DNA of 32,000 nt from Candidatus Lokiarchaeum ossiferum (GCA_025839675.1 CP104013.1:1050001-1082000), one strand, 5' to 3'; positions 441 through 21,708 are shown, counted from the first letter of the stretch. The notes: generated by a model from the letters alone, not told the origin. Numbers and translations: made by a program.

Positions 441-1532
441 TTATGAAACCTCTTGCCGAATATCGAATAAACTAACCCATTGATAATAAACTTGATAACA
501 TTCAGGACAGAAAATCACTGCCCTGGTCACCAATTGATTATTCTTCACCTTATAAGACCCATCTTCTTGATCGAAATTCTTGAGAATGTTCTCCGATTTG
601 CAGCGAGGACAAACATTAATATCTTGAAAATCAATGAAACGAAAATCAGGATTGAGAATTTTTTCCACCTTATCCTTTTCTTTCTGCATTTGTACAATTT
701 TGTCCATCTCTTGCATGCCTTCATCATCTGCATGAATAGATTCGGTACTTTCTGAATCAATTTTTCCCAGTTCCCGAATTATCTGCCCATCTTTGATGAT
801 TAAAGTCCGATCCGCAATTTTTCGGACTTCTGGGTTGTGAGTGACTATCACAATAGATTTATCCGGATTTTTTTGAATGAACTGTCTAAAAATGTTCATA
901 ATTTTTTCTGACGAGATAGAATCAATATTACCCGTAGGTTCATCGGCCAAAATAATAGTGGGATTATTTGCAAATGCCATTGCAATTGCCACTCGCTGTT
1001 TTTCCCCACCTGATAGCGTAAAAGGACGATGATGTGCACGATCTTCTAACCCGATTTCTTTAATGAGCTCATGAACTCGAGTTCGTTTATACTCATTGCT
1101 CTTCTTCGCAATAGTCATAGGCAATTCTACATTTCCTTCTGCGGTCAAACTGGGAATAAGGTTAAAAAATTGAAAGACTATACCAATTTCATTTTGCAAA
1201 ATTTGCTGCACTCCTTCATCCTTCATACGAGTAACATCAAACCCACGAATGAACACATGCCCTGCACTGGCTTGATCCATCCCAGATATGACGTTTAAAA
1301 GAGTTGTTTTTCCTGATCCTGAAGGACCCATAATCACAACAATCTCTCCAGCGTAAATATTCATATTGACTCCCTTAAGGGCGACTACTTCCAAATTACC
1401 TTGTTGGAAGATGCGAAAGACATTTTGACAACTAACGTTCACTTGCCTTTGTTTCAAGGGGACTTGTTTGTCTTGCGGTGTTACATTAGCGTCTACATCC
1501 GTTTTGGATGATTCATTTTCATTTTCGATCAT
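441..1532 (-). CDS. ABC transporter ATP-binding protein, MacB/LolD/FtsE-like, with a C-terminal four-Cys zinc-ribbon extension
   Basis: Walker A GPSGSGKTT, ABC signature LSGGEKQRVAIA, Walker B ILADEPTGNID and H-loop VTHN are present. ATG at 1532. The ABC core is about residues 37-262. It is followed by an acidic/Lys-rich linker and CPRC-x30-CPEC. The gene lies 24 nt downstream of the last FtsX-type permease gene. Confidence 0.95.
   Translation of the reverse strand: MIENENESSKTDVDANVTPQDKQVPLKQRQVNVSCQNVFRIFQQGNLEVVALKGVNMNIYAGEIVVIMGPSGSGKTTLLNVISGMDQASAGHVFIRGFDVTRMKDEGVQQILQNEIGIVFQFFNLIPSLTAEGNVELPMTIAKKSNEYKRTRVHELIKEIGLEDRAHHRPFTLSGGEKQRVAIAMAFANNPTIILADEPTGNIDSISSEKIMNIFRQFIQKNPDKSIVIVTHNPEVRKIADRTLIIKDGQIIRELGKIDSESTESIHADDEGMQEMDKIVQMQKEKDKVEKILNPDFRFIDFQDINVCPRCKSENILKNFDQEDGSYKVKNNQLVTRAVIFCPECYQVYYQWVSLFDIRQEVS
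498..611 (-). other. Zinc-ribbon-like module (CPRC...CPEC) at the C-terminus of the ABC ATPase
   Basis: Residues about 308-345 read CPRCKSENILKNFDQEDGSYKVKNNQLVTRAVIFCPEC. Two CxxC pairs 30 residues apart are the classic rubredoxin/zinc-ribbon knuckle spacing. The tgt cct cgc tgc codons are visible as the reverse complement of 600..611. Confidence 0.6.
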
Positions 1533-1556
1533 AGTTTGACATTCCTTTTTTTTTTA

Positions 1557-4500
1557 TTAAAATTGATGGAAATAATCCGTATAATTTTTTTTAGATTCAA
1601 AATAGTAGACAAGAAGATATATAATTATTGAGAAAACCGGTATCAATAATCCCACCAATAATATATCCATAAATTTGAAAAAAATGGGTGTTTTTATGTC
1701 TTGAAAGTTCAATTCAACAGCCCCTAACAATTTAGTAACAAAAATACCCTCAATTGCTCCGCTAAAAATTCCAGTGAATAAGGAAATCGTAAAAACCATC
1801 AGTGTCTCAGTTAATAAAAGCTTTAAAACACCTTTTTTTCCATATCCACGAGCTAAAAGGACACCTTGATTAAATTTATCCGCTTTCCTCAAAAATACTA
1901 ATAATATTGCAACACCAATAGCAATAATTAATCCAATAGCAATAAAATCCAAATATAGCACGGAATAAATCGTATTGGTTAAAGCACCTTCAAATATATT
2001 AACATCATCCAAATTATAAGAATTCCAATCATTATCATAGGTATATATATCAAAATTGTCAAAAGCCCCTATTTTTATTGTTGTATTCATTGTTCCTTCT
2101 ACGCAAAACTCGAAATTGGGTTCAACTACAAGATTGAAATCAAACATATGAATTATATTTTGACCATACATCATAGAAATATCTAATTCTAAAGCGTCAA
2201 TATCAACTAGCATGCATGTATAATCAGAATAATAACTTCGGTCATAATACGAAATCCCTGGAATCAGATCTACAACTGAGATAATTTTTGCAAGGTAGGT
2301 TTTAGTAAAAGTCCTTATAAAGTTTGGATCATAATATTTGATGTCTATATTAATAATTTCACCAAGTTCTACCGAATTAAGTTCAAGATATTTAGAATTT
2401 ACTGCTACCCCAAGATCAGAATCCTCAGGATTTCTATTATAATTAACTACTTCTTGAAACGGTGAAAATTTATTTTCGCTAATCAAATCTTTTCCATCTT
2501 CAGTAATACAAGTAGTGTATTTAGAGAGATTTAAGTAATATTCCATCTCATTATACCTCCCCGTGTTAAATCCCCGATATATGGTCAATACATCATCTAT
2601 GTATGTTTCATTATCTTCATTAGTCAATCCTTTGTACGTATTTTCAATATCAACTAAATCTTGACCAGATTTAACTAATCCTCGCGGACCTGGTCTATCA
2701 GCATCAAGACGATAATCAATTTCCGGAGAATATGTTATTTTAGCATCCGCCCCAGCTTCAATGTTGTACTCTATTCGTTGATACCTAACTATTGAATTTA
2801 ACATTATGTTTGAAAAGATGAAAAGTGACATAAATATTCCAATAAGGAACATAGTGGTGATGTATTGCTTTTTTCGAACCATATTTAAAGCCAAAATTTT
2901 ATTATCCTTTTTCATAATAATTCGGGAGATTTTGCGAGTAAATTTAGCAAAACGGCTAGGTTTCTCAAGTGCAAGGAACCGAATAATTGCAAAAACAAGG
3001 AGAAGTGGTGCAAAATAAAATAGAAACATTATACCACTTATCCTATATCGTAAACCATAGAATAACGATTGATAAATATCGCTATCAGAATTCAAACTAC
3101 CTAAGTAAAGAAAATAGAATATAACCGGAATTAAACTAAGTATTAGTAATAAATAAGAAATTGGCCATATTTTTTTTTCTCTTTGTGAAACACTATCCTT
3201 ATAGAGACTTCTTCGACGATTAAATAACTTTTTTCGTTTGGATTTTTTTAAATTTTGAACTCTTCCCTTCGATTCAACAAATAAATGAGGAGAACTCTCT
3301 TGAACATTCTTAGAATAAAAAGGTGTGTCTTCTAATGCAATTTTTTTTAATTTAGACTTTTTGAAAACAGATTTTTCGTCATATATTGCTTCCATTGAGT
3401 CAGAACCTAAGATTTCAAGAAGTTTATTGGTATGTAATTTACCTATATAGATTAGTGAAAGGATACTGGCAATTTGAGTAGTAAAAATTCCTACGATTAG
3501 TGAGGTAATAATAGGTCTCTCAGTTAGAACAAAAGATAGAGCTAATTCTATTCCAGATAATCCCAGAAACTGGGTCAACATATTACGGATAACATAAAAT
3601 ACACCTATACCTATAGTTGATCCTGCGAGTGATGCAATTGTTCCAATAGCAAAACCTTCAAAGAGAATTTGATTTCTGATCATTCCAGCAGGAGTTCCCT
3701 TGCTTCTTAATAATAAAAATTCTTCAATTCGACTTTTTTGTGCAATTTTTAAGGAAAAAGAACCAATTATTAAAGCAAATATCAAAATCGGAAAATTGAT
3801 TAATTGGAAAGCAATCCTAATCAAATTCAAGTCCATCCCAACATAACTCATTTGATATACCAAATAATTCATGAAGAACAGACCGTCAGGTAGATTGGAT
3901 TGAATAATTTCAGTACTAGTTTGCATTTGTGTAATTGTCGAAGAAATATGATTAAAATCTATTTTATTATGATTTGCAATAGCATTTAAAGATTGAACTC
4001 GAAACACATCGGAAGAATTCTCATTCCATTTTTGAGATAAAAATTCAGTCAGAATTGAATTTCCATAGAAATTAGATTGATTATAATAAGCAAAGACTGG
4101 TGCTTGGATATTATAAACAAAATCACGATCATCTAAATTCGGGGAAGATACATAGGTATTTGTTTTAGTGTCAAATTCGTATTCGGACCTGAAGTTCATA
4201 TTGGAAAATTGATAACTATATTTTAAACTCCCAAAAATACCCACTATTTTCACGTTTTCGATACAATATTTTGTCCATTTAGAGGGTACGACTTGGTAAT
4301 CTCCATCAATTCTTTGGAAAATGGAATCACTGGATGGTGAACAGATGGTCAAGTTGTACACATTGTTAAATGAAAAGTTCATGAATTTAGCAAACTGAAC
4401 ATCTACAAGAATTTCTTGTTCATTTTTTGGAAAAGTTCCTTTAATTAGTTTGAAGAATTTATTAAAATTTGGTGTTAAGTAGAAATTCTCTTCAGGTTGT

Positions 4501-4919
4501 AGTAGATTCATCTTTTGAAAATAATAATCGCCAAATATTGGTTTAGATGTGTTTACATTGGTATAATTCTTGTAAAAATATGAATTCTCAGAAGAGTAAA
4601 TAGACAGTTGAAAATACTCATCAATATACAATGATTTTTGATTTTCAGCAATATTTTGTATTATTGTTTTGTAATCATCAATTTCATCTGCATCCAAAAA
4701 TGAATTATTATCATGCTTTTGCATATCGTAATATGAAAATGAGTAATCATTTACCTCGGTAATATTTTCTTCTATAAATCTATTCGAAAATGAATCCGAA
4801 TAATAGGCTACACCTGCAACCATGCTTATAGCAATACTTAAACAGAATATAATTAAATATGCATTTTTTAAAGTAGATTTCGCCTGAGAGGCATAATATT
4901 TTAATCTGCCTTTGCCCAT
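1557..4919 (-). CDS. Giant fused double MacB/FtsX-type ABC permease, paralog 1 (10 predicted TM in a 4+2+4 arrangement, two large ectodomains)
   Basis: Half 1 has TM1 AYLIIFCLSIAISMVAGVAYY and a ~325-aa ectodomain with MacB-periplasmic-core-like strings (EILVDVQFAKFMNF, VKIVGIFGS). It continues with FtsX TM2-4 carrying the cytoplasmic coupling motif RIEEFLLLRSKGTP. A basic cytoplasmic linker and 2 extra TM helices follow. Half 2 starts ALNMVRKKQYITTMFLIGIF, has a ~270-aa ectodomain (GVAVNSKYLELNSVELGE, VVDLIPGI) and the FtsX motif NQGVLLARGYGKKG. A GGTGAT SD lies 3 nt upstream of ATG 4919. Confidence 0.9.
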   Translation of the reverse strand: MGKGRLKYYASQAKSTLKNAYLIIFCLSIAISMVAGVAYYSDSFSNRFIEENITEVNDYSFSYYDMQKHDNNSFLDADEIDDYKTIIQNIAENQKSLYIDEYFQLSIYSSENSYFYKNYTNVNTSKPIFGDYYFQKMNLLQPEENFYLTPNFNKFFKLIKGTFPKNEQEILVDVQFAKFMNFSFNNVYNLTICSPSSDSIFQRIDGDYQVVPSKWTKYCIENVKIVGIFGSLKYSYQFSNMNFRSEYEFDTKTNTYVSSPNLDDRDFVYNIQAPVFAYYNQSNFYGNSILTEFLSQKWNENSSDVFRVQSLNAIANHNKIDFNHISSTITQMQTSTEIIQSNLPDGLFFMNYLVYQMSYVGMDLNLIRIAFQLINFPILIFALIIGSFSLKIAQKSRIEEFLLLRSKGTPAGMIRNQILFEGFAIGTIASLAGSTIGIGVFYVIRNMLTQFLGLSGIELALSFVLTERPIITSLIVGIFTTQIASILSLIYIGKLHTNKLLEILGSDSMEAIYDEKSVFKKSKLKKIALEDTPFYSKNVQESSPHLFVESKGRVQNLKKSKRKKLFNRRRSLYKDSVSQREKKIWPISYLLLILSLIPVIFYFLYLGSLNSDSDIYQSLFYGLRYRISGIMFLFYFAPLLLVFAIIRFLALEKPSRFAKFTRKISRIIMKKDNKILALNMVRKKQYITTMFLIGIFMSLFIFSNIMLNSIVRYQRIEYNIEAGADAKITYSPEIDYRLDADRPGPRGLVKSGQDLVDIENTYKGLTNEDNETYIDDVLTIYRGFNTGRYNEMEYYLNLSKYTTCITEDGKDLISENKFSPFQEVVNYNRNPEDSDLGVAVNSKYLELNSVELGEIINIDIKYYDPNFIRTFTKTYLAKIISVVDLIPGISYYDRSYYSDYTCMLVDIDALELDISMMYGQNIIHMFDFNLVVEPNFEFCVEGTMNTTIKIGAFDNFDIYTYDNDWNSYNLDDVNIFEGALTNTIYSVLYLDFIAIGLIIAIGVAILLVFLRKADKFNQGVLLARGYGKKGVLKLLLTETLMVFTISLFTGIFSGAIEGIFVTKLLGAVELNFQDIKTPIFFKFMDILLVGLLIPVFSIIIYLLVYYFESKKNYTDYFHQF

Positions 4920-4922
4920 TAT

Positions 4923-4928
4923 ATCACC
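4923..4928 (-). promoter_or_regulatory. Shine-Dalgarno-like GGTGAT upstream of permease paralog 1
   Basis: The reverse complement of 4917..4930 reads atGGTGATataATG. GGTGAT matches the usual archaeal/bacterial anti-SD complement (GGAGGTGAT). Confidence 0.4.
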
Positions 4929-5034
4929 ATTTTTGATTGAAAGACAATTCTTCTAATTGTTTCACAATAATCACTTATTTTGAAGGGGTAATTATTTGAT
5001 ATTTTCATATTTTCGTTGTACATGTTTTCATTTG

Positions 5035-8000
5035 TTAGAATTGATGGAAATAATCCGTATAGTTTTTTTTGGTCTCAAAATAATAAACCAGAAGATATAT
5101 TGCTATGGATAGAATTGGAATTAGGAGTCCTAAAAGCAATAAATCCAGAGGATTAAAGAAAATGGGAAGTCTAATATCATTAAAATTGAAGGAAACGATC
5201 TTATAAAATTGTAAAAGAAGGACACTTTGAAGACCGCCGCTGAACAAACCAGATACAATTGAAATAGAAAAGACAATTGCAATTTCGGTCAATAATAATT
5301 TTAAAACGCCTTTTTTTCCATAACCTCGCGCTAAAAGAACTCCTTGATTATATTTATCCGCTTTTCGTAAAAATACCAATAAAATTGCAATACCAATCGC
5401 GATTATAATTCCAATGATGATTAAATCTAGATAAAAGATAGAATATACTCCAGAAACTTCAGAAAGGTTTGCGAGATCCAAATTTTTCAATGAAACAGAA
5501 TCCCAAGAGTTATCATAATATTTAAATTCTCCTATTGGAATATCATAATCTAATGCAACGTTCCATATTTGGTTTTCAATATAAGTTGAATTTAGAGCAA
5601 TTTCATAATTGAGATCAATCATTTGAAAAACTTGTGAGCCGTAAATAATATTCGAAGATAGATTCAAGCTATCAATATCAATTAAAATACACTGATCTGT
5701 GGAATAATAAAAGTAGTCCGGTCTATAGAGAATACCAGGAAATAAATCGCTTACAGCAACAATATTTACGGAAATCCTCTCGTGAACGAAATCTTCATCT
5801 TCAGGATTATAATAATCTAAATCCATTAACATAGATTCGCCGACATCAACAGAATTTTGTTCAAGAAAAGTAGGATTTACAATAATTCCAAGGTCAGAAT
5901 TATCTGGATTGTCATTATAATCTAAAGTTTGTTGAATTTTTTTAAAATGATCTTTGCTAATAGCATCTTTGTGATCTTCCGAAATAATATTGAGGTATTT
6001 AGAAAGATTGAGGAAATATCGTTGATCTTCCAAATACCCTCCATATGTATTTTTCCTTTGAACTGTTAAAACATCATTTATGAAGGATTCATTCTCAGAA
6101 TTATTCAAATTTTTGAGTGCATTTTCAAATGAAGTGAAATCATCCCCCGATTGAATTGGAGAGTCTTTTTCAAGGAATGTATCTGCAGAATCGTAATTGA
6201 ATAAAAGACTTCCAGGTAACTCCAAGTTGAGATCTGCTCCAGATGCAATATTTGTATTCACACGATCATATCTAATTATAGAATTCAAAGTTACATTTGA
6301 AAAAACAAGAACGGATATAAAGACGCCCACAAGAAACATCGTGGTGATATATTGCTTTTTTCTAACCATATTCAGTGCAACTAAGTTACTATCGCGTTTT
6401 AGGAATATCTTGGAGATCTTTTTTGAAAATTTCGCAAACCGACTCGGTTTTTCTAGGGCTACAAAACGAATTATGCCAAAAACGAGTAACAAAGGAGCTC
6501 CGATGAAAAGTATTATTAGCCCTGCAAATCCACCCATAAAAATCGAAGCGATTATCCAATAAAAATAATCATTGTTTGTCTCCGCTGCACTAATATATAA
6601 TAAAAATATAATAGCTGGAATCAAAGATAATAGAATGATTAAATATGAAAAGGGGCGTATTTTCTTTTCCTTGCTTTGCATCGTATCTTTGTATAATGAT
6701 CTTTTTCTACGAAATAATCCCTTCTTCCTTTTTTTCCCACTTGTTTCATTATTTAACGCAGGATCAGAAAGAAAATGAGGAGAACTTTCAACAACATTTC
6801 CAGAATAAAATGGAGTATCTTCCAAAGTTATATTGGCATCTTTATGTTTTTTAAAGATCGTTTTTTCATCATACAATGCTTCCATCGAATCTGCCCCTAA
6901 AATGGATAACAATTTATTTGTGTGCAATTTGCTAATAAAAACAAGTGAAATAATGCTCGCAACTTGGGTTAAAAGCGTCCCCACTATAAAAGAAGTTAAA
7001 ACCGATCTACCCGTTAAAATGAAAGGTAAAACAAGTCCAATTTCCCTTGATAAGAAGATTTTGGTTAAAATATTTCGTAAAATGAAGAAAACCCCAATAC
7101 CTAATATTGCCCCTAATAGAGTTGCAATGGCACCAATGAAGAAACCTTCAACTAAGATTTGGTTTCTAATCATGTTCTGTGGAGTACCTTTACTTCTCAA
7201 TAACAAAAACTCTTCTATTCGATTTTTTTGTTCAATTTTTAGAGCAAAAGCACCAATAAATAATGCGAATCCGATAATTGGGAGATTCAAAATCTGAAAA
7301 ACGGTTCGAGTAAACCCAATTTCATAACTAACACTCAATAATTGATTGTAGATATAATTCTCGTACCGCATGGGCAATTGATCAAACAAAATATAATTGC
7401 TGATTTGCATTTCATTTATGGTGGAAGATATATGCTGAAAATCAATCTTACTGTAATCTGCACTAGCACATAACATTTGATCTCGATACAGTCGAACGTG
7501 GAAATCATTCCACGCGGTTACGAGAAAATTTGCAAATTTCGAATTTCCATATACGTTGGATATATTATAGTAGGTGAAAAATGGAGATTGATCGCGGTCG
7601 TAAAACGAGTTATATTGAACCTCAAAGGATTCTGTCTTTGTATCAAGTAGATATCTTGAATCATAATAATCGCCCAAAATTTGATAATTATCATCCTTAA
7701 GACAACCATATATCCCTACAACTTTAATATCTGAAATATTATAGAAAATTAAATCAGAATTTAATTCGGGACCATCTTGGGTCCATTCAAATATTCCTGA
7801 ATTAGTTCCTTCTCCAACAAGATCTATTGTATAAGTTTTACCCAAGGTCAAATTCATTTCTTGTGCAAAAAGAACATCGATTAGTATTTCATTTTCACTG
7901 GTTGGATAAGTTCCATCCAATATTGTATAGAAATTTGAAAAACTGTCCGTTTGATAGAAGTTTTCTTGAACTTGATACAAATTAAAAGTGTGGCCATAAA

Positions 8001-8394
8001 ATGAACTCGCCCCATTTGGGTAAATATCCAGATTTTGACTATTATTGGTAAAGAAATAAATTTCACTCGAACGATATACGGACATCTGATAATAACGGTC
8101 AATTTTTAATGCTTCTTGAGCGTCTGTAATTTGAGTTATTTGATCTTCAAATCCAAAAATTGTTTCAGCAGAAGTGTTTCTAAATTCATGACTATTACCA
8201 TAATAACTGAAGGAATAATCAACTAATTCATTGATATTCGCCCTAATTATATAATTAGTATATGTATCTGAAAAATACGCAACGCCTGCAACCATACTTA
8301 GGGCAATACCTAAACCAATAATTATCAAATATGCGTTTTTCGTGGTCTTCCTCGCTTGTGAAAGATAATAATTTAAATGTCCGGTTTTCATCAT
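5035..8394 (-). CDS. Giant fused double MacB/FtsX-type ABC permease, paralog 2
   Basis: It has the same architecture as paralog 1 and aligns along its whole length. Shared strings include IEEFLLLRSKGTPQNMIRNQIL, KLHTNKLLSILGADSMEALYDEK, ALNMVRKKQYITTMFL and NQGVLLARGYGKKGVLKLLLTE, and the C-terminus KKNYTDYFHQF is identical. The track start at 8403 is a GTG that sits inside an SD-like GGGTGA (8400..8405). I therefore prefer ATG 8394, which lies 5 nt downstream of that SD (MMKTGHLNYYLSQ aligns with MGKGRLKYYASQ of paralog 1). Confidence 0.9.
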   Translation of the reverse strand: MMKTGHLNYYLSQARKTTKNAYLIIIGLGIALSMVAGVAYFSDTYTNYIIRANINELVDYSFSYYGNSHEFRNTSAETIFGFEDQITQITDAQEALKIDRYYQMSVYRSSEIYFFTNNSQNLDIYPNGASSFYGHTFNLYQVQENFYQTDSFSNFYTILDGTYPTSENEILIDVLFAQEMNLTLGKTYTIDLVGEGTNSGIFEWTQDGPELNSDLIFYNISDIKVVGIYGCLKDDNYQILGDYYDSRYLLDTKTESFEVQYNSFYDRDQSPFFTYYNISNVYGNSKFANFLVTAWNDFHVRLYRDQMLCASADYSKIDFQHISSTINEMQISNYILFDQLPMRYENYIYNQLLSVSYEIGFTRTVFQILNLPIIGFALFIGAFALKIEQKNRIEEFLLLRSKGTPQNMIRNQILVEGFFIGAIATLLGAILGIGVFFILRNILTKIFLSREIGLVLPFILTGRSVLTSFIVGTLLTQVASIISLVFISKLHTNKLLSILGADSMEALYDEKTIFKKHKDANITLEDTPFYSGNVVESSPHFLSDPALNNETSGKKRKKGLFRRKRSLYKDTMQSKEKKIRPFSYLIILLSLIPAIIFLLYISAAETNNDYFYWIIASIFMGGFAGLIILFIGAPLLLVFGIIRFVALEKPSRFAKFSKKISKIFLKRDSNLVALNMVRKKQYITTMFLVGVFISVLVFSNVTLNSIIRYDRVNTNIASGADLNLELPGSLLFNYDSADTFLEKDSPIQSGDDFTSFENALKNLNNSENESFINDVLTVQRKNTYGGYLEDQRYFLNLSKYLNIISEDHKDAISKDHFKKIQQTLDYNDNPDNSDLGIIVNPTFLEQNSVDVGESMLMDLDYYNPEDEDFVHERISVNIVAVSDLFPGILYRPDYFYYSTDQCILIDIDSLNLSSNIIYGSQVFQMIDLNYEIALNSTYIENQIWNVALDYDIPIGEFKYYDNSWDSVSLKNLDLANLSEVSGVYSIFYLDLIIIGIIIAIGIAILLVFLRKADKYNQGVLLARGYGKKGVLKLLLTEIAIVFSISIVSGLFSGGLQSVLLLQFYKIVSFNFNDIRLPIFFNPLDLLLLGLLIPILSIAIYLLVYYFETKKNYTDYFHQF

Positions 8395-8409
8395 TAGATT
8401 CACCCTGGT

Positions 8410-11400
8410 TTAAAATTTATGGAAGAATTTTGAAATATTCTGCCGGGATTCGATTAAAAAGGCCACATAGGAAATAATTAAAGATAATATCATAATTAAC
8501 CCGAGTATGCCGAATAGTTCACCTAGATTAGCATAAATTGGAAAATTAGTACTTTGATTTGCCACTTCAAGGTAATTTCCAACTTTTACAAAAATTGCGG
8601 AAAAGGAAAACCCGCAAAATAATCCAATGAGAATTCCAATTGTGAATATCACGATTAATTCACTAAGAATCAATTGCAATAACCCCTTTTTACCAAATCC
8701 CCTTGAGAGAAGGACCCCATTGAAGAATTTATTTTCTTTTTCTAGAGCCAAAATTAAAACTGCCAGCCCTATAGCAATTAAAATCCCTACAATAATGAAA
8801 TCAAAATATAAAACACCATATACACCCACTGTCCCTATAGTTGCCTTAAGTGAGACAGAATTCCAATTCTGATCATAAAATTCCATATGGTTGAACCTAC
8901 GAATGAATCCTTGAGTGATGTTAGCGATATGATCTTCAATTAATGATGAATTAGAAGTCAGTTCGGATGTGATATCAAATAATTGATAAATAGCATCTCC
9001 ATACATAATTTCAGGGGAACTATTAGCAAATTGTATATCGCAAGCAAGCATCGGTCGAGCAAACTGATTCACTCCAAATTTATGAAAAATTCCGGGTAAA
9101 ATTTCAATAGTTTTCAATAACTTAACCAATATTGTTGTTGAACGAACTTCTTCGGTTGAACTATTTATGAAACTAAAGGTAAAGTTGAACAAATCCCCTT
9201 CATTTTTGAGGTTGTAGGTCAGAAAATCTTGGTTAACTAACACACCGGGAGTATTATTTTCAGGATTTTTATTGTATTTTATAAGGGCTTGCATGTCCCT
9301 TCGAAATTGTCCACTAGGTAGCATTTTTTTATCTTCATCAATTATCTTCATATAATTTTCATAGTCAAAAAGGTAGGGTGTATAATTTCGAGAGGTAGAA
9401 TCAGGATTGTAGCATGTTACCATATTATTGACCATCGGATTCCCATCACTATAATTATAATTAAGGAAAGCATCTTCAAATTCAACAATATCCGACAAAT
9501 TCTCCATATACAAATTAACCCCTGAGAGTTCAGTTCGAACATCTGCCCCTATCTCAAGATTTGCATAGATATTTTCATATCGAGCGTTTGTATTCAAGTA
9601 AACGTTTGTGAAACAAAATAATGCGGTAAAAATTCCAATAATCAGGATAACAGTTTTATATTGCTTCCGTCTCACCATTTCAATGCCCACAAGAAACCCT
9701 CGTTCTTTTAAAAACCACTCAGATATTTTTTTAGAGAGATTTGCAAAGAAACTTGGTTTTTCTTTAGTAAAAAGTCGAATTACTCCTAAAGCAAAGAATA
9801 TCGGGGAAATTATAATGAATATTGTTAATACTGTTAGATTCTTTTTAAGATCAGCACTTAAAATAGCCAATTGATCAGAGGCTGATGGTAAAGATCCAAG
9901 ATAGATTAGTGCAAACAAAATTAAGGGAATCGTGGACAGAAGTATAAACGCATAGGAGAAATTAATGATTTTTGCTTCCTTCTCCTTTAGAGGATCCACA
10001 TAAAATGAAGTACCACTATCAGGTTCTCCTGAAGGAGCATTAAGTCCAGGTGAAGGATATGATTTTGTTTCTCGAACAAGTTGTCTTTGTAAATCTCTTT
10101 GTGAGTTGAAAAGATTGGTAGAATTCCATAAATTCCATTTCTTTTTTGGTTTTTTTGGTTTATCTTTTTTCTTTCTATCCGAGATTTTGGAGGGATCTTC
10201 ATCTGTAGAGATTTCCCAAGATTTTTTCCCAAATAGTGATCTTTCATCATAAATAGCATCCATTTCTTGAGAACCAATGGACGATAGCAATTCACTTACA
10301 GGCATTTTGATGACAAAACGAATGGCAATAGCGCTCCCTAAGAATGAAAGCAAAATACCAAAGAGGAAAGTATCCAAAATGGAATTCATACTTATTCGTA
10401 AAGCAACTAAGGAGGCAGATTTCATATCAAAGATTTCGATAAACAAACTACGAAAAAGGAAGAATCCTCCTGTCCCACATATCAAGCCCAATGCAGTAGA
10501 AAAAAAAGCAATAAATAGACTTTCAACGATGAATTGATTTCCTATCATCATTGGAGGTACCCCCTTACTTTTTAGAAGCAAAAACTCTTCCAAGCGGGAT
10601 TTTACTTCAGTTTTTCGAGCAAATGATCCCAATAATATGGCGGTCAATAAAATAGGAATATTCATTAATAGCAAAGTTGTTCTCACATAGTCAGTTTTTC
10701 CATAAAGTATGCGTAGAGCGGATTGTGTATAGTCTATAAATCTGTAATCGTTCGATATTTGATCCAATTGATTTCTGATAATGATATCTTCAGTTCGCAT
10801 CTTGTTTGCAAGAGAGTTCATATTGCTTAACTTGAAACTACCTCGAGAAATTATCCCTCCAACACAAATTCGAGATTCAATCAATTTTACCAAATCATTT
10901 GAATCCCACTCATTTTCAATATTATAAAAAAGATTTCGAAAATAGAACGATTTAGAATCTTTTATATAATTATAGTATGTTAAAATAGGAGCAGAATGAA
11001 TTTCTGCCGAAGAAAAAACGCCTGTTGTTTCATTAATATATGTTGGAAGAAGATTTGAGCTAAACTCAAAGACTGAAAACCGATAATTTTCCCGATTAGG
11101 TTTGAATATCCCAACAACAGTTGCATTTAAATTATACCCAAAAATTTGATCTTCAATAAAATCGGGCTGTTCATTTGGAATTGAATGATTTTCTAGATTG
11201 TCATATGCGTGGACACCGATTGCTTTTTCTCGATCAACACGAATATAAACGTTTGTGGTTTTAGATAAATTCATATTTAAATATTGAGCATATGCCGAAT
11301 CGATCAAAATTTCTCCAGGATTTTCCGGTGATCTTCCCTCAAGGATTGTGAAAAATTCTGAAAAACGATCATAGTGATAAAACTCAGAATCAAAAGCCCC

Positions 11401-11766
11401 CATGGAAAAGGGCAGTGTGTTTTGTGAGATATTATCAAATAAATCTACACCTTGAGTTGTAAAATAACTAAAATATGGAATATGATCAGGAGAATATTCA
11501 CTTTCTTCATAGAGATCATGGATGCGTTGCAATGTTCCGGGAATATTGTAAACAAGTGGAAGTTCAAAAGTATTTGAATTAAGCACCACTTCATAATCAA
11601 TAACATTATTTAATTCAATGTCAAACTTGTAGCGTTGATATGAATCAGAATAGTAACCTAACCCGGAGATCAAACTCAGAGTGATTGAAAATGCGATAAT
11701 TATTAAAATTGAACTCTTAACATTCCGCGTCCCTTGCGAGAGATAATATGTAAATCGATTTCCCAT
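8410..11766 (-). CDS. Giant fused double MacB/FtsX-type ABC permease, paralog 3 (most divergent)
   Basis: It has the same 4+2+4 TM layout. Supporting strings are GEILIDSAYAQYLNMNL, ATVVGIF, RLEEFLLLKSKGVPPMMIGNQFIVE, GIEMVRRKQYKTVILIIGIF and NGVLLSRGFGKKGLLQLILSE, with the C-terminus KFFHKF. The track start at 11862 adds 32 residues (MNSVLLLDNKIYITNCVYFCYSKLENTQRTIL) with no counterpart in the paralogs. That extension also covers a TTTATATA box. The internal ATG at 11766 (MGNRFTYYLSQG) aligns with the paralog N-termini. Confidence 0.87.
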   Translation of the reverse strand: MGNRFTYYLSQGTRNVKSSILIIIAFSITLSLISGLGYYSDSYQRYKFDIELNNVIDYEVVLNSNTFELPLVYNIPGTLQRIHDLYEESEYSPDHIPYFSYFTTQGVDLFDNISQNTLPFSMGAFDSEFYHYDRFSEFFTILEGRSPENPGEILIDSAYAQYLNMNLSKTTNVYIRVDREKAIGVHAYDNLENHSIPNEQPDFIEDQIFGYNLNATVVGIFKPNRENYRFSVFEFSSNLLPTYINETTGVFSSAEIHSAPILTYYNYIKDSKSFYFRNLFYNIENEWDSNDLVKLIESRICVGGIISRGSFKLSNMNSLANKMRTEDIIIRNQLDQISNDYRFIDYTQSALRILYGKTDYVRTTLLLMNIPILLTAILLGSFARKTEVKSRLEEFLLLKSKGVPPMMIGNQFIVESLFIAFFSTALGLICGTGGFFLFRSLFIEIFDMKSASLVALRISMNSILDTFLFGILLSFLGSAIAIRFVIKMPVSELLSSIGSQEMDAIYDERSLFGKKSWEISTDEDPSKISDRKKKDKPKKPKKKWNLWNSTNLFNSQRDLQRQLVRETKSYPSPGLNAPSGEPDSGTSFYVDPLKEKEAKIINFSYAFILLSTIPLILFALIYLGSLPSASDQLAILSADLKKNLTVLTIFIIISPIFFALGVIRLFTKEKPSFFANLSKKISEWFLKERGFLVGIEMVRRKQYKTVILIIGIFTALFCFTNVYLNTNARYENIYANLEIGADVRTELSGVNLYMENLSDIVEFEDAFLNYNYSDGNPMVNNMVTCYNPDSTSRNYTPYLFDYENYMKIIDEDKKMLPSGQFRRDMQALIKYNKNPENNTPGVLVNQDFLTYNLKNEGDLFNFTFSFINSSTEEVRSTTILVKLLKTIEILPGIFHKFGVNQFARPMLACDIQFANSSPEIMYGDAIYQLFDITSELTSNSSLIEDHIANITQGFIRRFNHMEFYDQNWNSVSLKATIGTVGVYGVLYFDFIIVGILIAIGLAVLILALEKENKFFNGVLLSRGFGKKGLLQLILSELIVIFTIGILIGLFCGFSFSAIFVKVGNYLEVANQSTNFPIYANLGELFGILGLIMILSLIISYVAFLIESRQNISKFFHKF

Positions 11767-11823
11767 TAGTATTGTCCTTTGAGTGTTTTCTAATTTTGAA
11801 TAACAAAAATATACACAATTTGT

Positions 11824-11831
11824 TATATAAA
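11824..11831 (-). promoter_or_regulatory. Candidate archaeal TATA box (TTTATATA) for an internal promoter driving the permease/ATPase genes
   Basis: The minus strand reads gataacaagaTTTATATAacaaatt. The box ends 57 nt upstream of ATG 11766, which would place a TSS about 30 nt upstream of the start codon. This is a motif match only. Confidence 0.35.
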
Positions 11832-11867
11832 TCTTGTTATCAAGTAAAAGAACAGAATTCATATTTT

Positions 11868-11895
11868 TTAGAAAAAGAAAGAAATGAAAAAAGGC
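11868..11895 (-). terminator. Oligo-T-rich tract downstream of the 1190-aa gene (possible archaeal intrinsic terminator or attenuation point)
   Basis: The minus strand after the stop at 11908 reads ...cagccTTTTTTcaTTTcTTTcTTTTTct. Archaeal termination commonly uses oligo-T runs. This is weak evidence in an AT-rich genome. Confidence 0.25.
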
Positions 11896-11907: not shown

Positions 11908-14900
11908 TTATTTGTCTGATTTTGGTTTTAATTCTTTAATTTGAGGGCGATGCTTGAACGTAATATCTTTGGGCTTTTTTTTTGTAAGAGCATCGGGTTT
12001 CAAATGAGGTTTCTCAAGTCTGATCGTATTTTCTTCATTTTGAACCAAATCAGAAGAAGGTTTGGGTACATCCGAAGTTTTCGCTAAAACAGGTGATGTT
12101 TTGGGAGATTTACTTGTGTCTGGGACCACTTTAGTTATTTTAGGACTTTCATCCGGCGCTTTATAGGGGGCAATAGTATCCCCTGAAGGTAAAACTAAAG
12201 AGGTAACGTCCGATTTAGTTGTAAACCCAGATTTTCGATTTCCTTTTGAAATATTGGATTTTAACTGTCCTTGAACCTTCCCAGGTAAAATATCCTTGAC
12301 AAGATGAATGTAAGACCCCATAAATAAATCCTTCCGTGATTTTGTTGAAATATTGAACGATTTTCCGCGCTTCATTGATCGCTTAAGTTTTTTAATATCA
12401 CGAACAATCTTTGGATATTTGTAGTACTTTTGATAAGCAATAAAAGAAGAAGTTAACCCCGCTAATGCGATACCCATAGTATAAAAAGCCCAAGACGGAA
12501 TGGAATCAGTGGGTGGAGAAATAACATTCAAAGTAATTGTAAACTGATCAAACTTATAGTTTAACCCTTTGTACACAGTGATTATGATTTTATGAATTCC
12601 TTCGGGTAAATTATTTAAGAGTATAGTATAAACGTGGTTTTCATCTTCCAAAAGCGTTCCCGACCCTAAAGCAGACTGATATTCAACCAAACATCCAGAT
12701 ATCAGGCCCCCATTGTCAAGATCTTCAACAATTACACCTAAATCAAAATCTTCACCTGGCCGTAAAGAATAAGAACTATTATAATGTTGAGAAGTAATAT
12801 TCGTACTTATAGGTCTTATTTTTATCTGGAAATTCTTTGTAAATTGGGCATAATTAGCTTTTTGAGACAACACAGTTATAAAGTGAACCCCCAATCCCAT
12901 TTCGGTAGTATTTAATTGAAAATAATAATGGCTCCCCGAGGATCTATCTGAAAATTGACTTGAATTAAGTCCAACCAATGAAAAAGTAACCGCTGAAATA
13001 ATATTTCCAGATTCCGAATCATATAAAGCCCCAGAAATATTTAAATAATGGGTTATGGGAACTTCAACTTGGGTAAACATAGAATAATCAGAATTATCAA
13101 CAAAAACACCTAAGTTCACACTACGAGGTGTTATTTGTACTTCAATCAATTCGTTGTATTCTAGATGCTTAGGAGACGAAGCTACGAGGAAAATATAATA
13201 AATTCCTATGCTGAAATTAGTTGTATCAACAATGAATTCATGTTTTGTTGAAATCTGTCGATATGAAGAAGAGGCACCAGTCAATGTTACCGCTGCATCT
13301 AAAACGACATCAAATGTCACAGAATCATAAACTTGTGCAGTTAAATTCAAAGTTGAATTGTATTCGAGGTCAATATGAGGAGATAACGTTGAATTGATCC
13401 CATTCAAAAAAATATCAAAATATGAATCTCTCCCTAATACTTTGATCCGGATTTGTTGCGAAGACTGTTCATAATTGGATTTTCCCAGATATACTGTAAT
13501 TAAATGGGTTCCTAATCCTATTTTGGAAGTATTTAATAGATATTGGTATCTATTCCCAATCTCTGAAAATTCAAAGGTGGAATCATCAATATTATTACCT
13601 ACTAAAGAAATATTTGCATTGATTAAAGGTTCCTTACTTTCAAAATCATAATACCATGAAGTAATGTTCAATTGTGTATCATAGGGAACTTCTATAATTG
13701 GTGATTCAGTTAAATTGATATCATTGGAGAAGAGATCACAATAAGTGGGTCTTCCAATAATATTTATTTCTATTATCAGAGATGGTGTGTTATACCAAGT
13801 CCCTTCATTATCCGGAGTAATTTCTAACAAGTAGGACAACCCTGCAGAAACAATAGAAGTATTGATATCAAATTCATACAATCCATCGCCCAGAAAGAGA
13901 ACAGGACTATGATTATCGACCCAATTTAGAGAAAACGCACTATTATTGATTGAAACAACTGGAGAACTTTCAGAATAATTTAGAGTGATCGTTTTCGTGG
14001 TATTCCAAATGACATCATAATTATTTTTGCCATCAAGTGTGTTTAAAGTGGTTTCAATCGGTTCCCGTGACTCTATCACATTATACCATACAATTAAATT
14101 AATATTATCAAGGAAAATAGAGACATTATTTACAAGATAGAATTCATCGGCAATATACAATAGAATAGAAATGGATGTGTTTTCACTAAATTTATTTTTA
14201 TCCAAAAACAATGAAGAAACATCAAATCCATCCCCTTCATTAGTAGATTGAATTTCTGTAGTCATTGAAGATAAGAATATTTGTTCTGAAAGATAATTAT
14301 CATTTATGCCTATTTGAATTCGAGAATTTGGAGTAAGGTATCCTATTTGTTCGCTTATATTATAGTCAAAACTTAAGGTTGCATTAACAATTTCAATTTC
14401 TTTATCTAAATACTCACTATTATTTAATTTATTAGCACTTTGAACAAGATCTAAAGTAGAAAACTGATCTATTCTTTTTTCATAACTAAATTCTAAACTA
14501 AAGTTTTTAATTAAAAGAGAATCCCAAATATCTTGATCACTCCACCAATTATCTTCACACCAAATTCTTATTCCCAGCGTTACTGTGAAATGAAAATAAT
14601 CCTTGCTTAATACTGATGTAAGATAGATAATTAATGCCTCTTCAGATGTTGCATTAAAAACTAAATCAAGTAAATCATTGGAGCCAGTATCAGAGCCTAA
14701 TTCGACAGTTTGATAAAACGCAACTTCGTAAGTATCATTTTTATCAAGATCAGATAGTAAAACATAAAATCTAGCATAGTCACCCGTCCCAAATTGAGGG
14801 GAAATAGGATCGTGATCACTTCTATCACTCGTATCATCCCCTGGGCATTCAATTCCACCCATCCACCCATCAGCAGCATCAGAAACGGAGGCATTAATTG

Positions 14901-15480
14901 TAGTTCTTACAGAAGCACTAGTAATGCGATATTCAGACATATTAACATCAGTTGTTAAATTTTTTTCCCAGTGAACACTCGGTGATTGATTCGCATCTTC
15001 ATCCCATGCATGAGAAACCTCCAACATATCTTCTGAATTGAAAAGATGGGAATCAGGAAAAACTGGAAAATTTGGATTACTTTTTTCTAGCCAATCAATA
15101 TTTGAGAATGATGGATTTATATCCGAGAAAGTATTGGAATTTCCAATTATTGTGGAATTCGAAACTTCGGTGGAAATAGCACCATCTAAATCAAATAGAT
15201 CTCCGGTTTTTTCATAATTCCATGGACTATCGCCAAAATCTGTAGTAAAAGATGGATCATTAATTAATTGTTTCGAATAAAGCGTGCTATTTTTTAGTAT
15301 AACAGAGGAGTTTGGATTATTAAATTTATTATCATTGTTATTTCCAGTATTTTTATATTCTTTAATTGTATTCTGTGTAACCACTTGACCAATAATGCAA
15401 ATCATCAATATTGCCAAGGTGATTTTTTTTTTGGGAGAATTCATTTTTATTTTTCCACCTCTAAAAGCTTGTTTTTCCAT
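11908..15480 (-). CDS. Giant type-I membrane surface protein: signal peptide, ~430-aa N-terminal domain, four to five Ig-like ~100-aa repeats, C-terminal TM anchor and a 174-aa K/P/S-rich cytoplasmic tail
   Basis: The N-terminus ...MNSPKKKITLAILMICIIGQVV is signal-peptide-like. I counted at least ~30 N-x-S/T sequons by eye in the ectodomain. Repeats span residues ~475-988 (recurring ...Y.F.LNT...G.G.H.ITV...NY....F.I.I...). The TM is WAFYTMGIALAGLTSSFIAY (res ~996-1016). ATG 15480 has GAGGT 7 nt upstream but overlaps the upstream gene by 34 nt. The alternative ATG 15444 lies 2 nt after the upstream stop and has GAGGTGG upstream. Confidence 0.85.
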   Translation of the reverse strand: MEKQAFRGGKIKMNSPKKKITLAILMICIIGQVVTQNTIKEYKNTGNNNDNKFNNPNSSVILKNSTLYSKQLINDPSFTTDFGDSPWNYEKTGDLFDLDGAISTEVSNSTIIGNSNTFSDINPSFSNIDWLEKSNPNFPVFPDSHLFNSEDMLEVSHAWDEDANQSPSVHWEKNLTTDVNMSEYRITSASVRTTINASVSDAADGWMGGIECPGDDTSDRSDHDPISPQFGTGDYARFYVLLSDLDKNDTYEVAFYQTVELGSDTGSNDLLDLVFNATSEEALIIYLTSVLSKDYFHFTVTLGIRIWCEDNWWSDQDIWDSLLIKNFSLEFSYEKRIDQFSTLDLVQSANKLNNSEYLDKEIEIVNATLSFDYNISEQIGYLTPNSRIQIGINDNYLSEQIFLSSMTTEIQSTNEGDGFDVSSLFLDKNKFSENTSISILLYIADEFYLVNNVSIFLDNINLIVWYNVIESREPIETTLNTLDGKNNYDVIWNTTKTITLNYSESSPVVSINNSAFSLNWVDNHSPVLFLGDGLYEFDINTSIVSAGLSYLLEITPDNEGTWYNTPSLIIEINIIGRPTYCDLFSNDINLTESPIIEVPYDTQLNITSWYYDFESKEPLINANISLVGNNIDDSTFEFSEIGNRYQYLLNTSKIGLGTHLITVYLGKSNYEQSSQQIRIKVLGRDSYFDIFLNGINSTLSPHIDLEYNSTLNLTAQVYDSVTFDVVLDAAVTLTGASSSYRQISTKHEFIVDTTNFSIGIYYIFLVASSPKHLEYNELIEVQITPRSVNLGVFVDNSDYSMFTQVEVPITHYLNISGALYDSESGNIISAVTFSLVGLNSSQFSDRSSGSHYYFQLNTTEMGLGVHFITVLSQKANYAQFTKNFQIKIRPISTNITSQHYNSSYSLRPGEDFDLGVIVEDLDNGGLISGCLVEYQSALGSGTLLEDENHVYTILLNNLPEGIHKIIITVYKGLNYKFDQFTITLNVISPPTDSIPSWAFYTMGIALAGLTSSFIAYQKYYKYPKIVRDIKKLKRSMKRGKSFNISTKSRKDLFMGSYIHLVKDILPGKVQGQLKSNISKGNRKSGFTTKSDVTSLVLPSGDTIAPYKAPDESPKITKVVPDTSKSPKTSPVLAKTSDVPKPSSDLVQNEENTIRLEKPHLKPDALTKKKPKDITFKHRPQIKELKPKSDK
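12517..14058 (-). repeat. Protein-level tandem repeats (~100 aa, Ig/beta-sandwich-like) within the surface protein; diverged at DNA level
   Basis: Units cover approximately residues 475-576, 577-684, 685-786, 787-890 and 891-988. Recurring features are an N-glycosylation sequon near each unit start, a central aromatic-rich strand (YQYLLNTSKIGLGTHLITVY / HYYFQLNTTEMGLGVHFITVL / HVYTILLNNLPEGIHKIIITVY) and a terminal 'I.I.V/I' strand. Confidence 0.6.
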
Positions 15481-18131: not shown

Positions 18132-18141
18132 TTCACTCACT

Positions 18142-19410
18142 TTAAAATTCTATCACTTCATTGTATGTAGAAACTAATAAATCCAGAGCAATATTTGCAA
18201 CTTCTTTGGTGATGGGAGAATATAAAGAAAACTCATCGATAGAACCCATCTTCATGATTGTTCGATCGGAAATCTTATTCAAGATTTCTTCCGGAAAAAT
18301 TGTAATCGGGGTAATCTGAGCTAACAAGCAAATCCACTCCCTGTTTGCTTTATCAGTTAAAATCTTAATAATCTTGGCTTCTTTCAGTTTTGCTAACACT
18401 TTGTCCATCTCAGAAAATTCGGACAAAATATGGGGTATTTTTTTCACAGGAATTGCACGAGTCTGCAATAATGCGAGGAAATCATATATATCGGGATCTA
18501 AAAGAAAATCTGCTAATAATTCACTTTCTTCGTTTATTTTTTCAGTAGGATTGTAATTTTGGTAAAATTTATATAGCTCTTGAAGGTATTGCGTCCCCAC
18601 ATACGAGTTATGTTTCATATCTTCAACTAATTGAATTGGAGGAGAGCGAACTAAAGCAATATCTTTGACTAAAAATAAGAATTCACCTTCCCCTCTCAAT
18701 TTACCCGTCTTTTTGTTAAATTCACCCCGTGCCCAATCCCTTCGGATTAAATTGAGCTCCGTGAATGGTTTTAACAATAAATCGGTATTTATATTTCGCT
18801 TAATTTCAAGCATTTTTTGATTAAAAATCACTCGAGAAATTGGACCTTCGCGAAGAATTCTCAAGCACTCCATTCGCTCGAAACTTGAATAAATCAAAGC
18901 GGCTTTTTGTTCTTTGGATAAGTTAGATAGACGTTCGATTTGAAAAATCGCAAATTTCATCTCATTAAGAAGTTTATTTTCGATCCCTTCTACCACCCGA
19001 AAGTCATTTAAATTAGCAGTTATGAGAGTCTCAAAAACGGGCATCATTCGTTCGGTCATATGATAGAAAATTGGTTCAAACAATTCCACTTCACTTTCAC
19101 GTTCGAATAAATTGATTATCAAATATTGAGATTCATCGGTTTCTTGGTGATAATAGGATAAACATTTATATGGTGCTTCTTTCAATCGACCTACAATATA
19201 ATTTTTAATCTGACGACCCTTTTTAGTCATTATTCCTGTAGTATGATTATAGAAAAGGCGAAATTTATCATTATTTGATAGAAGATCTTCGAGATTATCA
19301 TCTTGATGAAAATTCGATAGTTCAGATACAATTTCTTCAAACTTTGGTTCAATTTCTCCCTCGTCATCTTGATTAATCTTAAATTGATAAACTATAATTC
19401 CAACAACCAT
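18142..19410 (-). CDS. Hypothetical cytoplasmic protein, first gene of the cluster; possible longin/roadblock-like N-terminal domain plus winged-helix-like C-terminal region
   Basis: The 422-aa ORF starts with ATG and has no TM segments. N-terminal pattern MVVGIIVYQF...FRLFYNH...CLSYYHQETDESQYLIINLFERESEVELFEPIFYHMTERM. This resembles the b-b-a-b-b-b-a layout and the 'YL.I.....E...AF.FL..I...F' signature of longin-type domains. That comparison is by eye only. Confidence 0.75.
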   Translation of the reverse strand: MVVGIIVYQFKINQDDEGEIEPKFEEIVSELSNFHQDDNLEDLLSNNDKFRLFYNHTTGIMTKKGRQIKNYIVGRLKEAPYKCLSYYHQETDESQYLIINLFERESEVELFEPIFYHMTERMMPVFETLITANLNDFRVVEGIENKLLNEMKFAIFQIERLSNLSKEQKAALIYSSFERMECLRILREGPISRVIFNQKMLEIKRNINTDLLLKPFTELNLIRRDWARGEFNKKTGKLRGEGEFLFLVKDIALVRSPPIQLVEDMKHNSYVGTQYLQELYKFYQNYNPTEKINEESELLADFLLDPDIYDFLALLQTRAIPVKKIPHILSEFSEMDKVLAKLKEAKIIKILTDKANREWICLLAQITPITIFPEEILNKISDRTIMKMGSIDEFSLYSPITKEVANIALDLLVSTYNEVIEF

Positions 19411-21693: not shown

Positions 21694-21708
21694 TGTAAAT
21701 ACCTATTA

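Follow-up and report, generated by a model that had tools for sequence, protein, structure and literature searches.

Permeases and docking elements

This analysis concerns a four-gene operon of Candidatus Lokiarchaeum ossiferum B-35 that encodes three large permeases, here called P3, P2 and P1, together with a single ATP-binding cassette (ABC) ATPase. The operon (P3-P2-P1-ATPase in transcription order) occupies positions 441-11766 on the minus strand of a 32,000-nucleotide stretch of the genome (CP104013.1:1050001-1082000), referred to below as the window and numbered from its first letter; all features described here lie on that strand unless stated otherwise. P3 (NEF87_000853, 1118 aa) is encoded at 8410..11766, P2 (NEF87_000852) at 5035..8394 and P1 (NEF87_000851, 1120 aa, 100% identical to P0001) at 1557..4919. 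P2 is 1119 aa long when read from its ATG, the open reading frame (ORF) itself reaching a GTG at 8403. The ATPase gene (NEF87_000850, UYP44565.1, 363 aa) follows directly downstream of P1 at 441..1532, and no further ABC ATPase was found within the window. The genes are separated by 15 nt (P3-P2), 115 nt (P2-P1) and 24 nt (P1-ATPase). The start of P3 at 11766 (MGNRF) is kept in all P3 orthologues and matches the end coordinate given in a preliminary description of the locus.

Each of the three permeases contains two matches to the Pfam FtsX family (PF02687), scoring above the gathering threshold with E values of 1e-13 to 1e-15. Hydropathy identifies ten hydrophobic transmembrane (TM) segments per protein in a 4+2+4 pattern, the central pair being linker helices, and the helices of an AlphaFold2 (AF2) model agree with this. 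Two large domains are inserted into the pattern: ectodomain 1 (323-328 aa) between TM1 and TM2, and ectodomain 2 (265-287 aa) between TM7 and TM8. In P1 these comprise residues 39-366 (3822..4805) and 708-991 (1947..2798), with equivalents at 7312-8277 and 5425-6285 in P2 and at 10687-11655 and 8800-9594 in P3. Lysine and arginine together make up 20-25% of the predicted cytoplasmic segments versus 6-8% of the predicted external segments, an asymmetry that places both large domains outside the cell. The first ectodomain of P1 (7% lysine plus arginine) has eight N-X-S/T sequons and is modelled as a mixed alpha/beta domain.

The AF2 model of P1 was built on 17 homologues (predicted local distance difference test, pLDDT, 72; predicted template modelling score 0.71). 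Foldseek comparison of this model with the PDB returned full-length E. coli YbbP as the best match (9ge7_A, E 1.8e-14), followed in order by LolE, BceB, YtrF, MacB and HrtB; the model also aligns to the isolated periplasmic domain of LolE (5udf, probability 1.0) and to the YbbP periplasmic domains. At the coupling-loop positions the model has short helices (residues 398-406 and 1015-1023). The paired FtsX matches, the YbbP fold match and the charge asymmetry bear out what the preliminary description had proposed regarding the FtsX fold, the fused 4+2+4 layout and the external position of both large domains. Its view that a large ectodomain in both halves is unusual has to be dropped: this is the layout of YbbP, described in 2018 and solved in 2025.

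The permeases thus have the architecture of YbbP but are not YbbP orthologues, since identity to YbbP is 10%, the profile-to-PDB match has an E value of 0.05 and no conserved partner hydrolase gene was found at the six loci compared. Their ectodomains are ~50-100 aa larger than those of YbbP, and the two halves of each permease are far more diverged from each other than are the halves of YbbP (26%). A signal of internal duplication was looked for and not found: BLASTP and hhalign gave no significant similarity between ectodomain 1 and ectodomain 2 or between the N- and C-terminal halves.

Sequence identity is unevenly distributed along the permeases. P1 and P2 are 49-50% identical overall and P1 and P3 31%. 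In the coupling loops between TM2 and TM3 and between TM8 and TM9, these values rise to 85-96% for P1-P2 and 57-67% for P1 or P2 versus P3, and in the ectodomains they are 39-41% and 24-30%, respectively. Coupling loop 1 of P1 (residues 391-417, 3669..3749, TM2-TM3) reads KIAQKSRIEEFLLLRSKGTPAGMIRNQ and is 85% and 67% identical to its equivalents in P2 (7159-7239) and P3 (10534-10614). Coupling loop 2 (residues 1011-1033, 1821..1889, TM8-TM9) reads RKADKFNQGVLLARGYGKKGVLK, with identities of 96% and 61% to the equivalents in P2 (5299-5367) and P3 (8674-8742). In an unbiased sliding scan of P1 against P3 using 25-aa windows, the two highest-ranking windows were the coupling loops (P1 393-417 and 1014-1038) and the third was the segment preceding TM7; none of the top eight fell in an ectodomain. 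The corresponding binomial tail probabilities of the loops are 2e-9 (P1-P2) and 1.6e-6 (P1-P3). Expressed as ranges among the paralogues, the two coupling-helix loops reach 62-90% identity and the ectodomains 19-39%.

Every motif quoted in the preliminary description is present. These comprise the pairs IEEFLLLRSKGTP / LEEFLLLKSKGVP, NQGVLLARGYGKKGVL / NGVLLSRGFGKKGLL and LLEILGSDSMEAIYDEK / LLSSIGSQEMDAIYDER, as well as LNMVRKKQY / IEMVRRKQY, the C-terminal DYFHQF / KFFHKF, and EILVDVQFA and IVGIF. Its two observations, that the paralogues keep near-identical cytoplasmic elements and that their ectodomains are much more divergent, are both upheld by the scan and by the identities (24-41% in the ectodomains against 57-96% in the coupling loops). 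The conserved elements sit at the docking positions of type VII systems (PMC12646458, PMC5985334): the coupling helices of TM2-3 and TM8-9, and the minor helix at the C-terminus, which in type VII permeases contacts the nucleotide-binding domain, NBD. Where permease residues are identical, the same codon is used in 50% of cases versus 47% expected from codon usage. Synonymous sites are therefore saturated, which traces the conserved motifs to purifying selection acting at the protein level; on the same figures, recent gene conversion among the permeases was rejected as their cause.

One ATPase body, two gene copies

The 363-aa ATPase comprises a disordered N-terminal extension (residues 1-30), an NBD (~31-255), a linker helix modelled with low confidence and a C-terminal zinc ribbon. 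It matches Pfam ABC_tran (1.5e-36), and its best NCBIfam matches are to MacB, LolD, FtsE, DevA and YbbA (194-214 bits); all of these fall under the equivalog cut-offs, and the protein is therefore orthologous to none of the five. The AF2 model has a pLDDT of 79, falling below 50 for residues 1-27, which are poorly conserved among homologues. Foldseek matches the NBD to MJ0796 and the E. coli MacB NBD with TM-scores of 0.89-0.95 and 39-45% identity; taking in BceA and YbbA as well, the range is 0.87-0.95. The best-matching solved type VII NBDs are ~225-250 aa long and align to the NBD only, not to the C-terminal domain. This last domain (residues ~300-357, 462..635) is beta-rich (pLDDT 80-93) and carries a CPRC...CPEC signature whose cysteines, C308, C311, C342 and C345, are invariant in 38 ATPase homologues, including paralogues of 47-50% identity. 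It gave only weak matches to zinc-ribbon Pfam families, and no sequence relative of it was found in the PDB. A reasonable guess is that it dimerises or regulates the shared motor.

GenBank labels the ATPases "Vitamin B12 import ATP-binding protein BtuD" and leaves the permeases as "hypothetical protein". This is probably a misannotation, the family and fold matches being to MacB, LolD and MJ0796 for the ATPase and to FtsX and YbbP for the permeases, and both labels deserve correction.

According to the preliminary description the locus has only one ATPase gene. This holds within the window but not for the locus as a whole, where a second copy, NEF87_000845 (UYP44560.1, 363 aa, same strand), lies ~9.7 kb past the left window edge. 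It belongs to a second cassette, most of which is carried by contig L017 (L017:1-8679), positions 1-474 of which correspond to window 474-1 at 100% identity. Following the window ATPase the order is NEF87_000849 (a 191-aa membrane protein on the minus strand), NEF87_000848 (99 aa, on the strand opposite to the cassette), the permease NEF87_000847 (1186 aa, minus strand), the permease NEF87_000846 (1123 aa, L017:5160-8531, same strand as the operon) and the start of ATPase 845. NEF87_000849 was considered as a conserved accessory subunit and rejected, since it does not resemble the gene that occupies the corresponding position at a related locus, L006.

The two ATPases (845 and 850; P0290 and P0291) are 100% identical over residues 34-363, and all 15 differences between them lie within residues 3-33. 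In a second L. ossiferum genome both copies carry S262N, E264D and A268E relative to B-35, and the same 15 N-terminal differences separate them. Strain-specific substitutions found in both copies imply that sequence has been exchanged since the strains split, that is, concerted evolution, from which the N-terminal segment, its 15 differences kept in both strains, has escaped. The pattern indicates a gene-conversion tract with sharp boundaries at the start of the NBD and at the stop codon; as judged from the sequences, the putative tract would correspond in the window to 444..1433 (codons 34-363), a stretch that NEF87_000845 repeats exactly. Between the cassettes the permeases are no more than 25-34% identical, which rules out that the whole cassette was duplicated recently. 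We know of no multitask ATPase that is kept identical in two linked copies by gene conversion.

Could the identity of the copies instead be a collapsed repeat in the assembly, or the outcome of a very recent one-off duplication with no continuing concerted evolution? The short-read Logan contigs fail to resolve the repeat: they stop 42 codons inside either ATPase gene, and L017 begins 34 nt inside the 3' end, breakpoints that are as expected from an exact repeat of ~990 bp. One contig also crosses from P1 via the ATPase to sequence that flanks the other copy, and the second copy was compared mostly as protein, with DNA over the first 126 nt only. Yet two independently deposited genomes (6.04 and 6.27 Mb) each annotate two 363-aa copies with their own N-termini and flanks, and a one-off duplication sits poorly both with three strain-specific substitutions common to the two copies and with flanking permeases that are 25-34% identical. 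We regard either form of this explanation as highly improbable.

The crossing contig, L002, comes from another sequencing run. At L002:10258-12242 the series P3-P2-P1-ATPase is joined straight to NEF87_000844, a UBC-core, E2-like protein whose gene flanks ATPase 845 in B-35; the junction reflects either the route taken by the assembly across the repeat or a genuine deletion by recombination between the ATPase genes. Divergence between the two L. ossiferum genomes is very uneven within the locus: permease 846 and its counterpart P0141 are 91.9% identical, compared with 99.2% for P3 and 99.2% for the ATPases.

Five permeases, 25-50% identical, thus stand beside two gene copies of one ATPase body. 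All five have EEFLLL[RK]SKG, G[VT]LL[AS]RGxGKKG and a C-terminal FH[QK]F. Still, each ATPase could be private to its own cassette, with the N-terminal 33 residues or co-translational assembly restricting 850 to P1-P3 and 845 to 846 and 847, and with more distant paralogues serving some of the permeases. That the 15 differences, all in residues 3-33, have been preserved in both strains would fit such a restriction, as would the existence of other long-ATPase paralogues in the genome: there are at least three (P0076, P0084 and P0090; 47-50% identical), at least one with permeases of its own. The latter arrangement, at L016:5065-12801, consists of a 1098-aa permease, a 347-aa ATPase (48% identical, zinc ribbon kept) and a 1103-aa permease (NEF87_000118); these permeases have different motifs and coupling loops that are 32-36% identical to those described here, a contrast that favours the shared-ATPase interpretation set out below, and their loops are dissimilar to each other. 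Against private cassettes, residues 1-27 are predicted to be disordered (pLDDT < 50) and are poorly conserved, and in solved type VII systems the surface that contacts the permease is in the NBD body, which is identical in the two copies. Three permeases would, moreover, still share ATPase 850. We consider strictly private cassettes improbable.

Relatives, neighbours and the proposed system

Related loci were compared in six cases. One permease gene accompanies one ATPase gene in Promethearchaeum syntrophicum and at L010, two accompany one at L006, L008 and L009, and three accompany one at the L. ossiferum window locus. In all six the ATPase gene lies 3' of the last permease gene and encodes a protein of 359-369 aa. 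Multiple permeases per ATPase gene (one, two or three) is therefore a recurring arrangement in Lokiarchaeia.

A neighbour-joining tree of the permeases resolves an ATPase-proximal clade A (P1, P2, the L006 downstream copy and NEF87_000846), an ATPase-distal clade B (P3, its L006 orthologue, which is the upstream copy, and NEF87_000847) and a separate Promethearchaeum clade with an independent duplication. On this tree the A/B split is older than the divergence of L. ossiferum from L006, and the P1/P2 duplication (49% identity) later.

A profile search of 1.84 billion cluster representatives returned 102 clusters at E <= 1e-30, mostly of 1000-1190 aa, with NEF87_000846 and NEF87_000847 among the matches, and the named relatives in the permease searches are all Promethearchaeota or Lokiarchaeota. 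Scanning a genome collection with the ATPase C-terminal domain gave matches in Promethearchaeum genomes only, in a search that did not return L. ossiferum itself. In Promethearchaeum sp. CSMAG_2396 two contigs (L011 and L012) each begin with a zinc-ribbon ATPase of the same family, and there may be more than one cassette per genome in the Promethearchaeum lineage too. We found no literature connecting L. ossiferum or archaea to these permeases.

The relatives also provide a yardstick for the divergence of the ectodomains, from which the preliminary description had suggested three different targets. The ratio of ectodomain to coupling-loop identity is 0.35-0.42 for the paralogues of the operon and 0.40-0.45 for orthologues of similar divergence (P1 or P2 versus the L006 downstream copy, P3 versus the L006 upstream copy, and P. 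syntrophicum versus L010). The steep gradient of conservation from cytoplasm to exterior thus characterises the family at large; diversified targets would be consistent with it, but it does not in itself argue for them, and the suggestion gains no specific support.

With the two ratios so alike, the paralogues might be redundant or differently regulated isoforms acting on the same substrate, their ectodomains drifting under relaxed constraint and the sharing of an ATPase a by-product of tandem duplication. Copy number does vary from one to three among close relatives, and a single copy suffices at the P. syntrophicum locus. Against this, the A/B split is old and both copies have been retained in L. 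ossiferum (twice) and in L006, whilst all five ORFs are intact and carry family-invariant ectodomain residues; at 25-34% identity, copies that were purely redundant should have decayed. We think isoforms of this kind unlikely.

Upstream of P3 the head-to-tail series of ORFs on the minus strand continues, giving seven in all: 422 aa -> 897 aa -> 1190 aa -> P3 -> P2 -> P1 -> ATPase. The 422-aa gene lies at 18142-19410 and the 897-aa gene, whose product combines a CxxC motif at the N-terminus with a C-terminal half of low complexity, at 15447-18140. Directly upstream of P3, at 11908-15480, is the gene for a 1190-aa surface protein with an N-terminal signal or anchor, a large external region rich in N-X-S/T, a C-terminal TM helix and a K/P/S-rich tail. 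These three close-packed genes were considered as conserved components of the system and rejected. They have no Pfam or NCBIfam family and are absent from the loci of all relatives (tblastn), and P3-P2-P1-ATPase is for that reason taken as the unit; a T-rich tract and a TATA-like box also lie between them and P3.

A boundary between the P3 operon and the 1190-aa gene probably lies at 11823..11892, where a T-rich tract (11872-11892) beyond the stop codon of that gene is followed by a TATA-like TTTATATAA at 11823-11831, 57 nt ahead of the P3 ATG. This candidate boundary is put forward from direct reading of the sequence, because the genome is 30% GC and bacterial-type promoter and terminator scans were uninformative, with counts not above those in shuffled sequence.

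Further upstream, at 20566-24684, a 991-aa soluble, multi-PAS HisKA_2 histidine kinase (21709-24684) is encoded beside a 375-aa response regulator. BceRS-like regulation by this pair was considered and rejected, the kinase being soluble and multi-PAS and the pair not being syntenic with the transporter in relatives. A 195-aa ORF on the plus strand (25327-25914), 14 kb off, is homologous (E 6e-26) to L006:14622-15215; the latter directly follows the L006 ATPase, which points to rearrangement or insertion around the L. ossiferum cassette.

Our interpretation is that window 441-11766 encodes a YbbAP-like type VII (MacB/FtsX-superfamily) ABC system in which several alternative permeases draw on one ATPase, a reading to which we give a probability of roughly two in three. 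Its firm ground is the gene content, the fold and topology, the pattern of conservation, the variation in copy number and, for the ATPase copies, their identity and concerted evolution; from sequences and models we infer 2:1 complexes, actual sharing, mechanotransmission and the class of substrate.

Each permease is a complete fused pseudo-dimer, made up of two four-TM FtsX modules, two linker helices and one large ectodomain per module; to the cytoplasm it presents a pair of coupling helices and a pair of post-TM tails. If it behaves as YbbP and BceB do in YbbA2P and BceA2B, two chains of the 363-aa ATPase would bind to it. ATP would drive this ATPase dimer shut, and the movement would reach the ectodomains by way of the coupling helices and stalk helices; the ectodomains would then perform mechanical work on the outer side of the single membrane, where the likeliest task would be the extraction or handover of a hydrophobic or membrane-anchored molecule. 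The same ATPase body may serve P1, P2 and P3 as well as NEF87_000847 and NEF87_000846, with gene conversion apparently holding the two ATPase copies identical while the five permeases diverge. The proposal that one ATPase serves alternative fused permeases was already made in the preliminary description, and is strengthened by five permeases facing one body; what needs correcting is the single gene, the supposedly unusual layout and the inference as to targets.

Several points weigh against this interpretation. The similarity of the P1 model to YbbP is moderate only (TM-score 0.41/0.52, 10% identity), and the ectodomains of P1-P3, candidates for a MacB/LolC-like (Porter/Sabre) fold, have no match to Pfam MacB_PCD. 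Residues of the coupling helices are invariant across the 17 homologues, single-copy ones included, so that their conservation shows compatibility with the ATPase rather than sharing as such. The dissimilar loops around one ATPase at L016 mean that a common neighbouring ATPase is no guarantee of similar docking motifs. The first 33 residues, which differ between the ATPase copies, could in principle confer cassette specificity, and cross-pairing of the permeases with other ATPase paralogues may occur. Protein interaction and expression of the system are predictions from the sequence. Finally, no conserved extracellular partner or clue to a substrate was found in the neighbourhoods of the six loci, and in consequence no substrate can be named.

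A bolder version has a hub-and-spoke type VII machine confined to Lokiarchaeia, in which one pool of zinc-ribbon ATPase, its two gene copies actively homogenised by gene conversion, would power at least five diverged mechanotransmitters with giant ectodomains, each acting on a different component of the unusual Asgard cell surface, with the ribbon coordinating or regulating the choice of permease. This we hold to be speculative and unlikely; if true, its tasks might include the extraction or positioning of membrane-anchored surface proteins or lipids.

Regardless of this bolder version, identical ATPase copies amid permeases diverged to 25-50% identity would constitute, at the level of sequence, unusually clean evidence for an interchangeable motor, and the locus is a testable system for how specificity is partitioned between motor and permease. 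The permeases also rank among the largest membrane proteins exposed at the surface of L. ossiferum, whose cell-surface biology bears on models of eukaryogenesis.

Comparison with known systems

Type VII ABC systems, among them MacB, LolCDE, FtsEX, BceAB and YbbAP, have been studied almost wholly in bacteria, where each does a distinct job in the cell envelope by mechanotransmission. The L. ossiferum permeases place the YbbP-type architecture in cultured Asgard archaea, as an expanded and lineage-restricted subfamily.

Sharing of an ATPase has precedents outside type VII. The multitask ATPases MsmK and MsiK of Gram-positive sugar importers and the ATPases of group II energy-coupling factor (ECF) transporters energise several membrane modules each. 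Unlike the system described here, these are importers of other ABC fold types, and as a rule their ATPase gene lies apart from the permease genes. Permeases that outnumber ATPases are likewise familiar from the acidobacterial duplicated orphan permeases (ADOP, TIGR03434), a large family of two-FtsX paralogues that have no adjacent ATPase genes. Membership of ADOP was rejected for the L. ossiferum permeases, which gave no NCBIfam match to that family at E <= 0.01 and have an ATPase gene adjacent at every locus.

LolCDE resembles the L. ossiferum operon in combining one ATPase species with two diverged FtsX-fold permease paralogues from one operon, and the ectodomain folds are probably related, to judge from the LolE matches. 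LolC and LolE, however, are four-TM half-permeases that come together in one complex. Each L. ossiferum paralogue is already a full pseudo-dimer, so any sharing must be between alternative complexes. Identity with LolC or LolE at the equivalog level was rejected, the NCBIfam LolE scores being 16-19 bits against cut-offs of 439-540.

BceAB of B. subtilis (PDB 7TCG/8G4C) has a 10-TM fused FtsX permease, matched in fold at E values of ~1e-8 to 1e-5, and a BceA:BceB stoichiometry of 2:1 (PMC5985334). BceB differs in having a single ectodomain, between TM7 and TM8, and in its association with BceRS, whereas the L. ossiferum permeases have two ectodomains and the nearby kinase is soluble and non-syntenic. 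A 2018 review of MacB had already distinguished fused permeases with one periplasmic domain, as in BceB, from those with two, as in YbbP (PMC5985334).

The closest known counterpart is YbbAP(-TesA) (PDB 9GE6/9GE7/9GE8). YbbP has ten TM segments, with large periplasmic domains between TM1 and TM2 and between TM7 and TM8, a TM5-6 link and coupling helices at TM2-3 and TM8-9, and YbbA and YbbP form a 2:1 complex for which a mechanotransmission mechanism has been described (PMC12646458). The fused 10-TM permease, the two ectodomains, the coupling-helix sites and a separate MacB-type ATPase are common to the two systems. The differences are that YbbP is 804 aa long compared with ~1120 aa here, at ~10% identity, and that no TesA-like or other hydrolase partner gene was found across the six loci. 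What is new here is the archaeal host with its single membrane, the oversized ectodomains, an ATPase extended by a linker and zinc ribbon, the cassettes with several permease genes per ATPase gene, and ATPase copies that evolve in concert.

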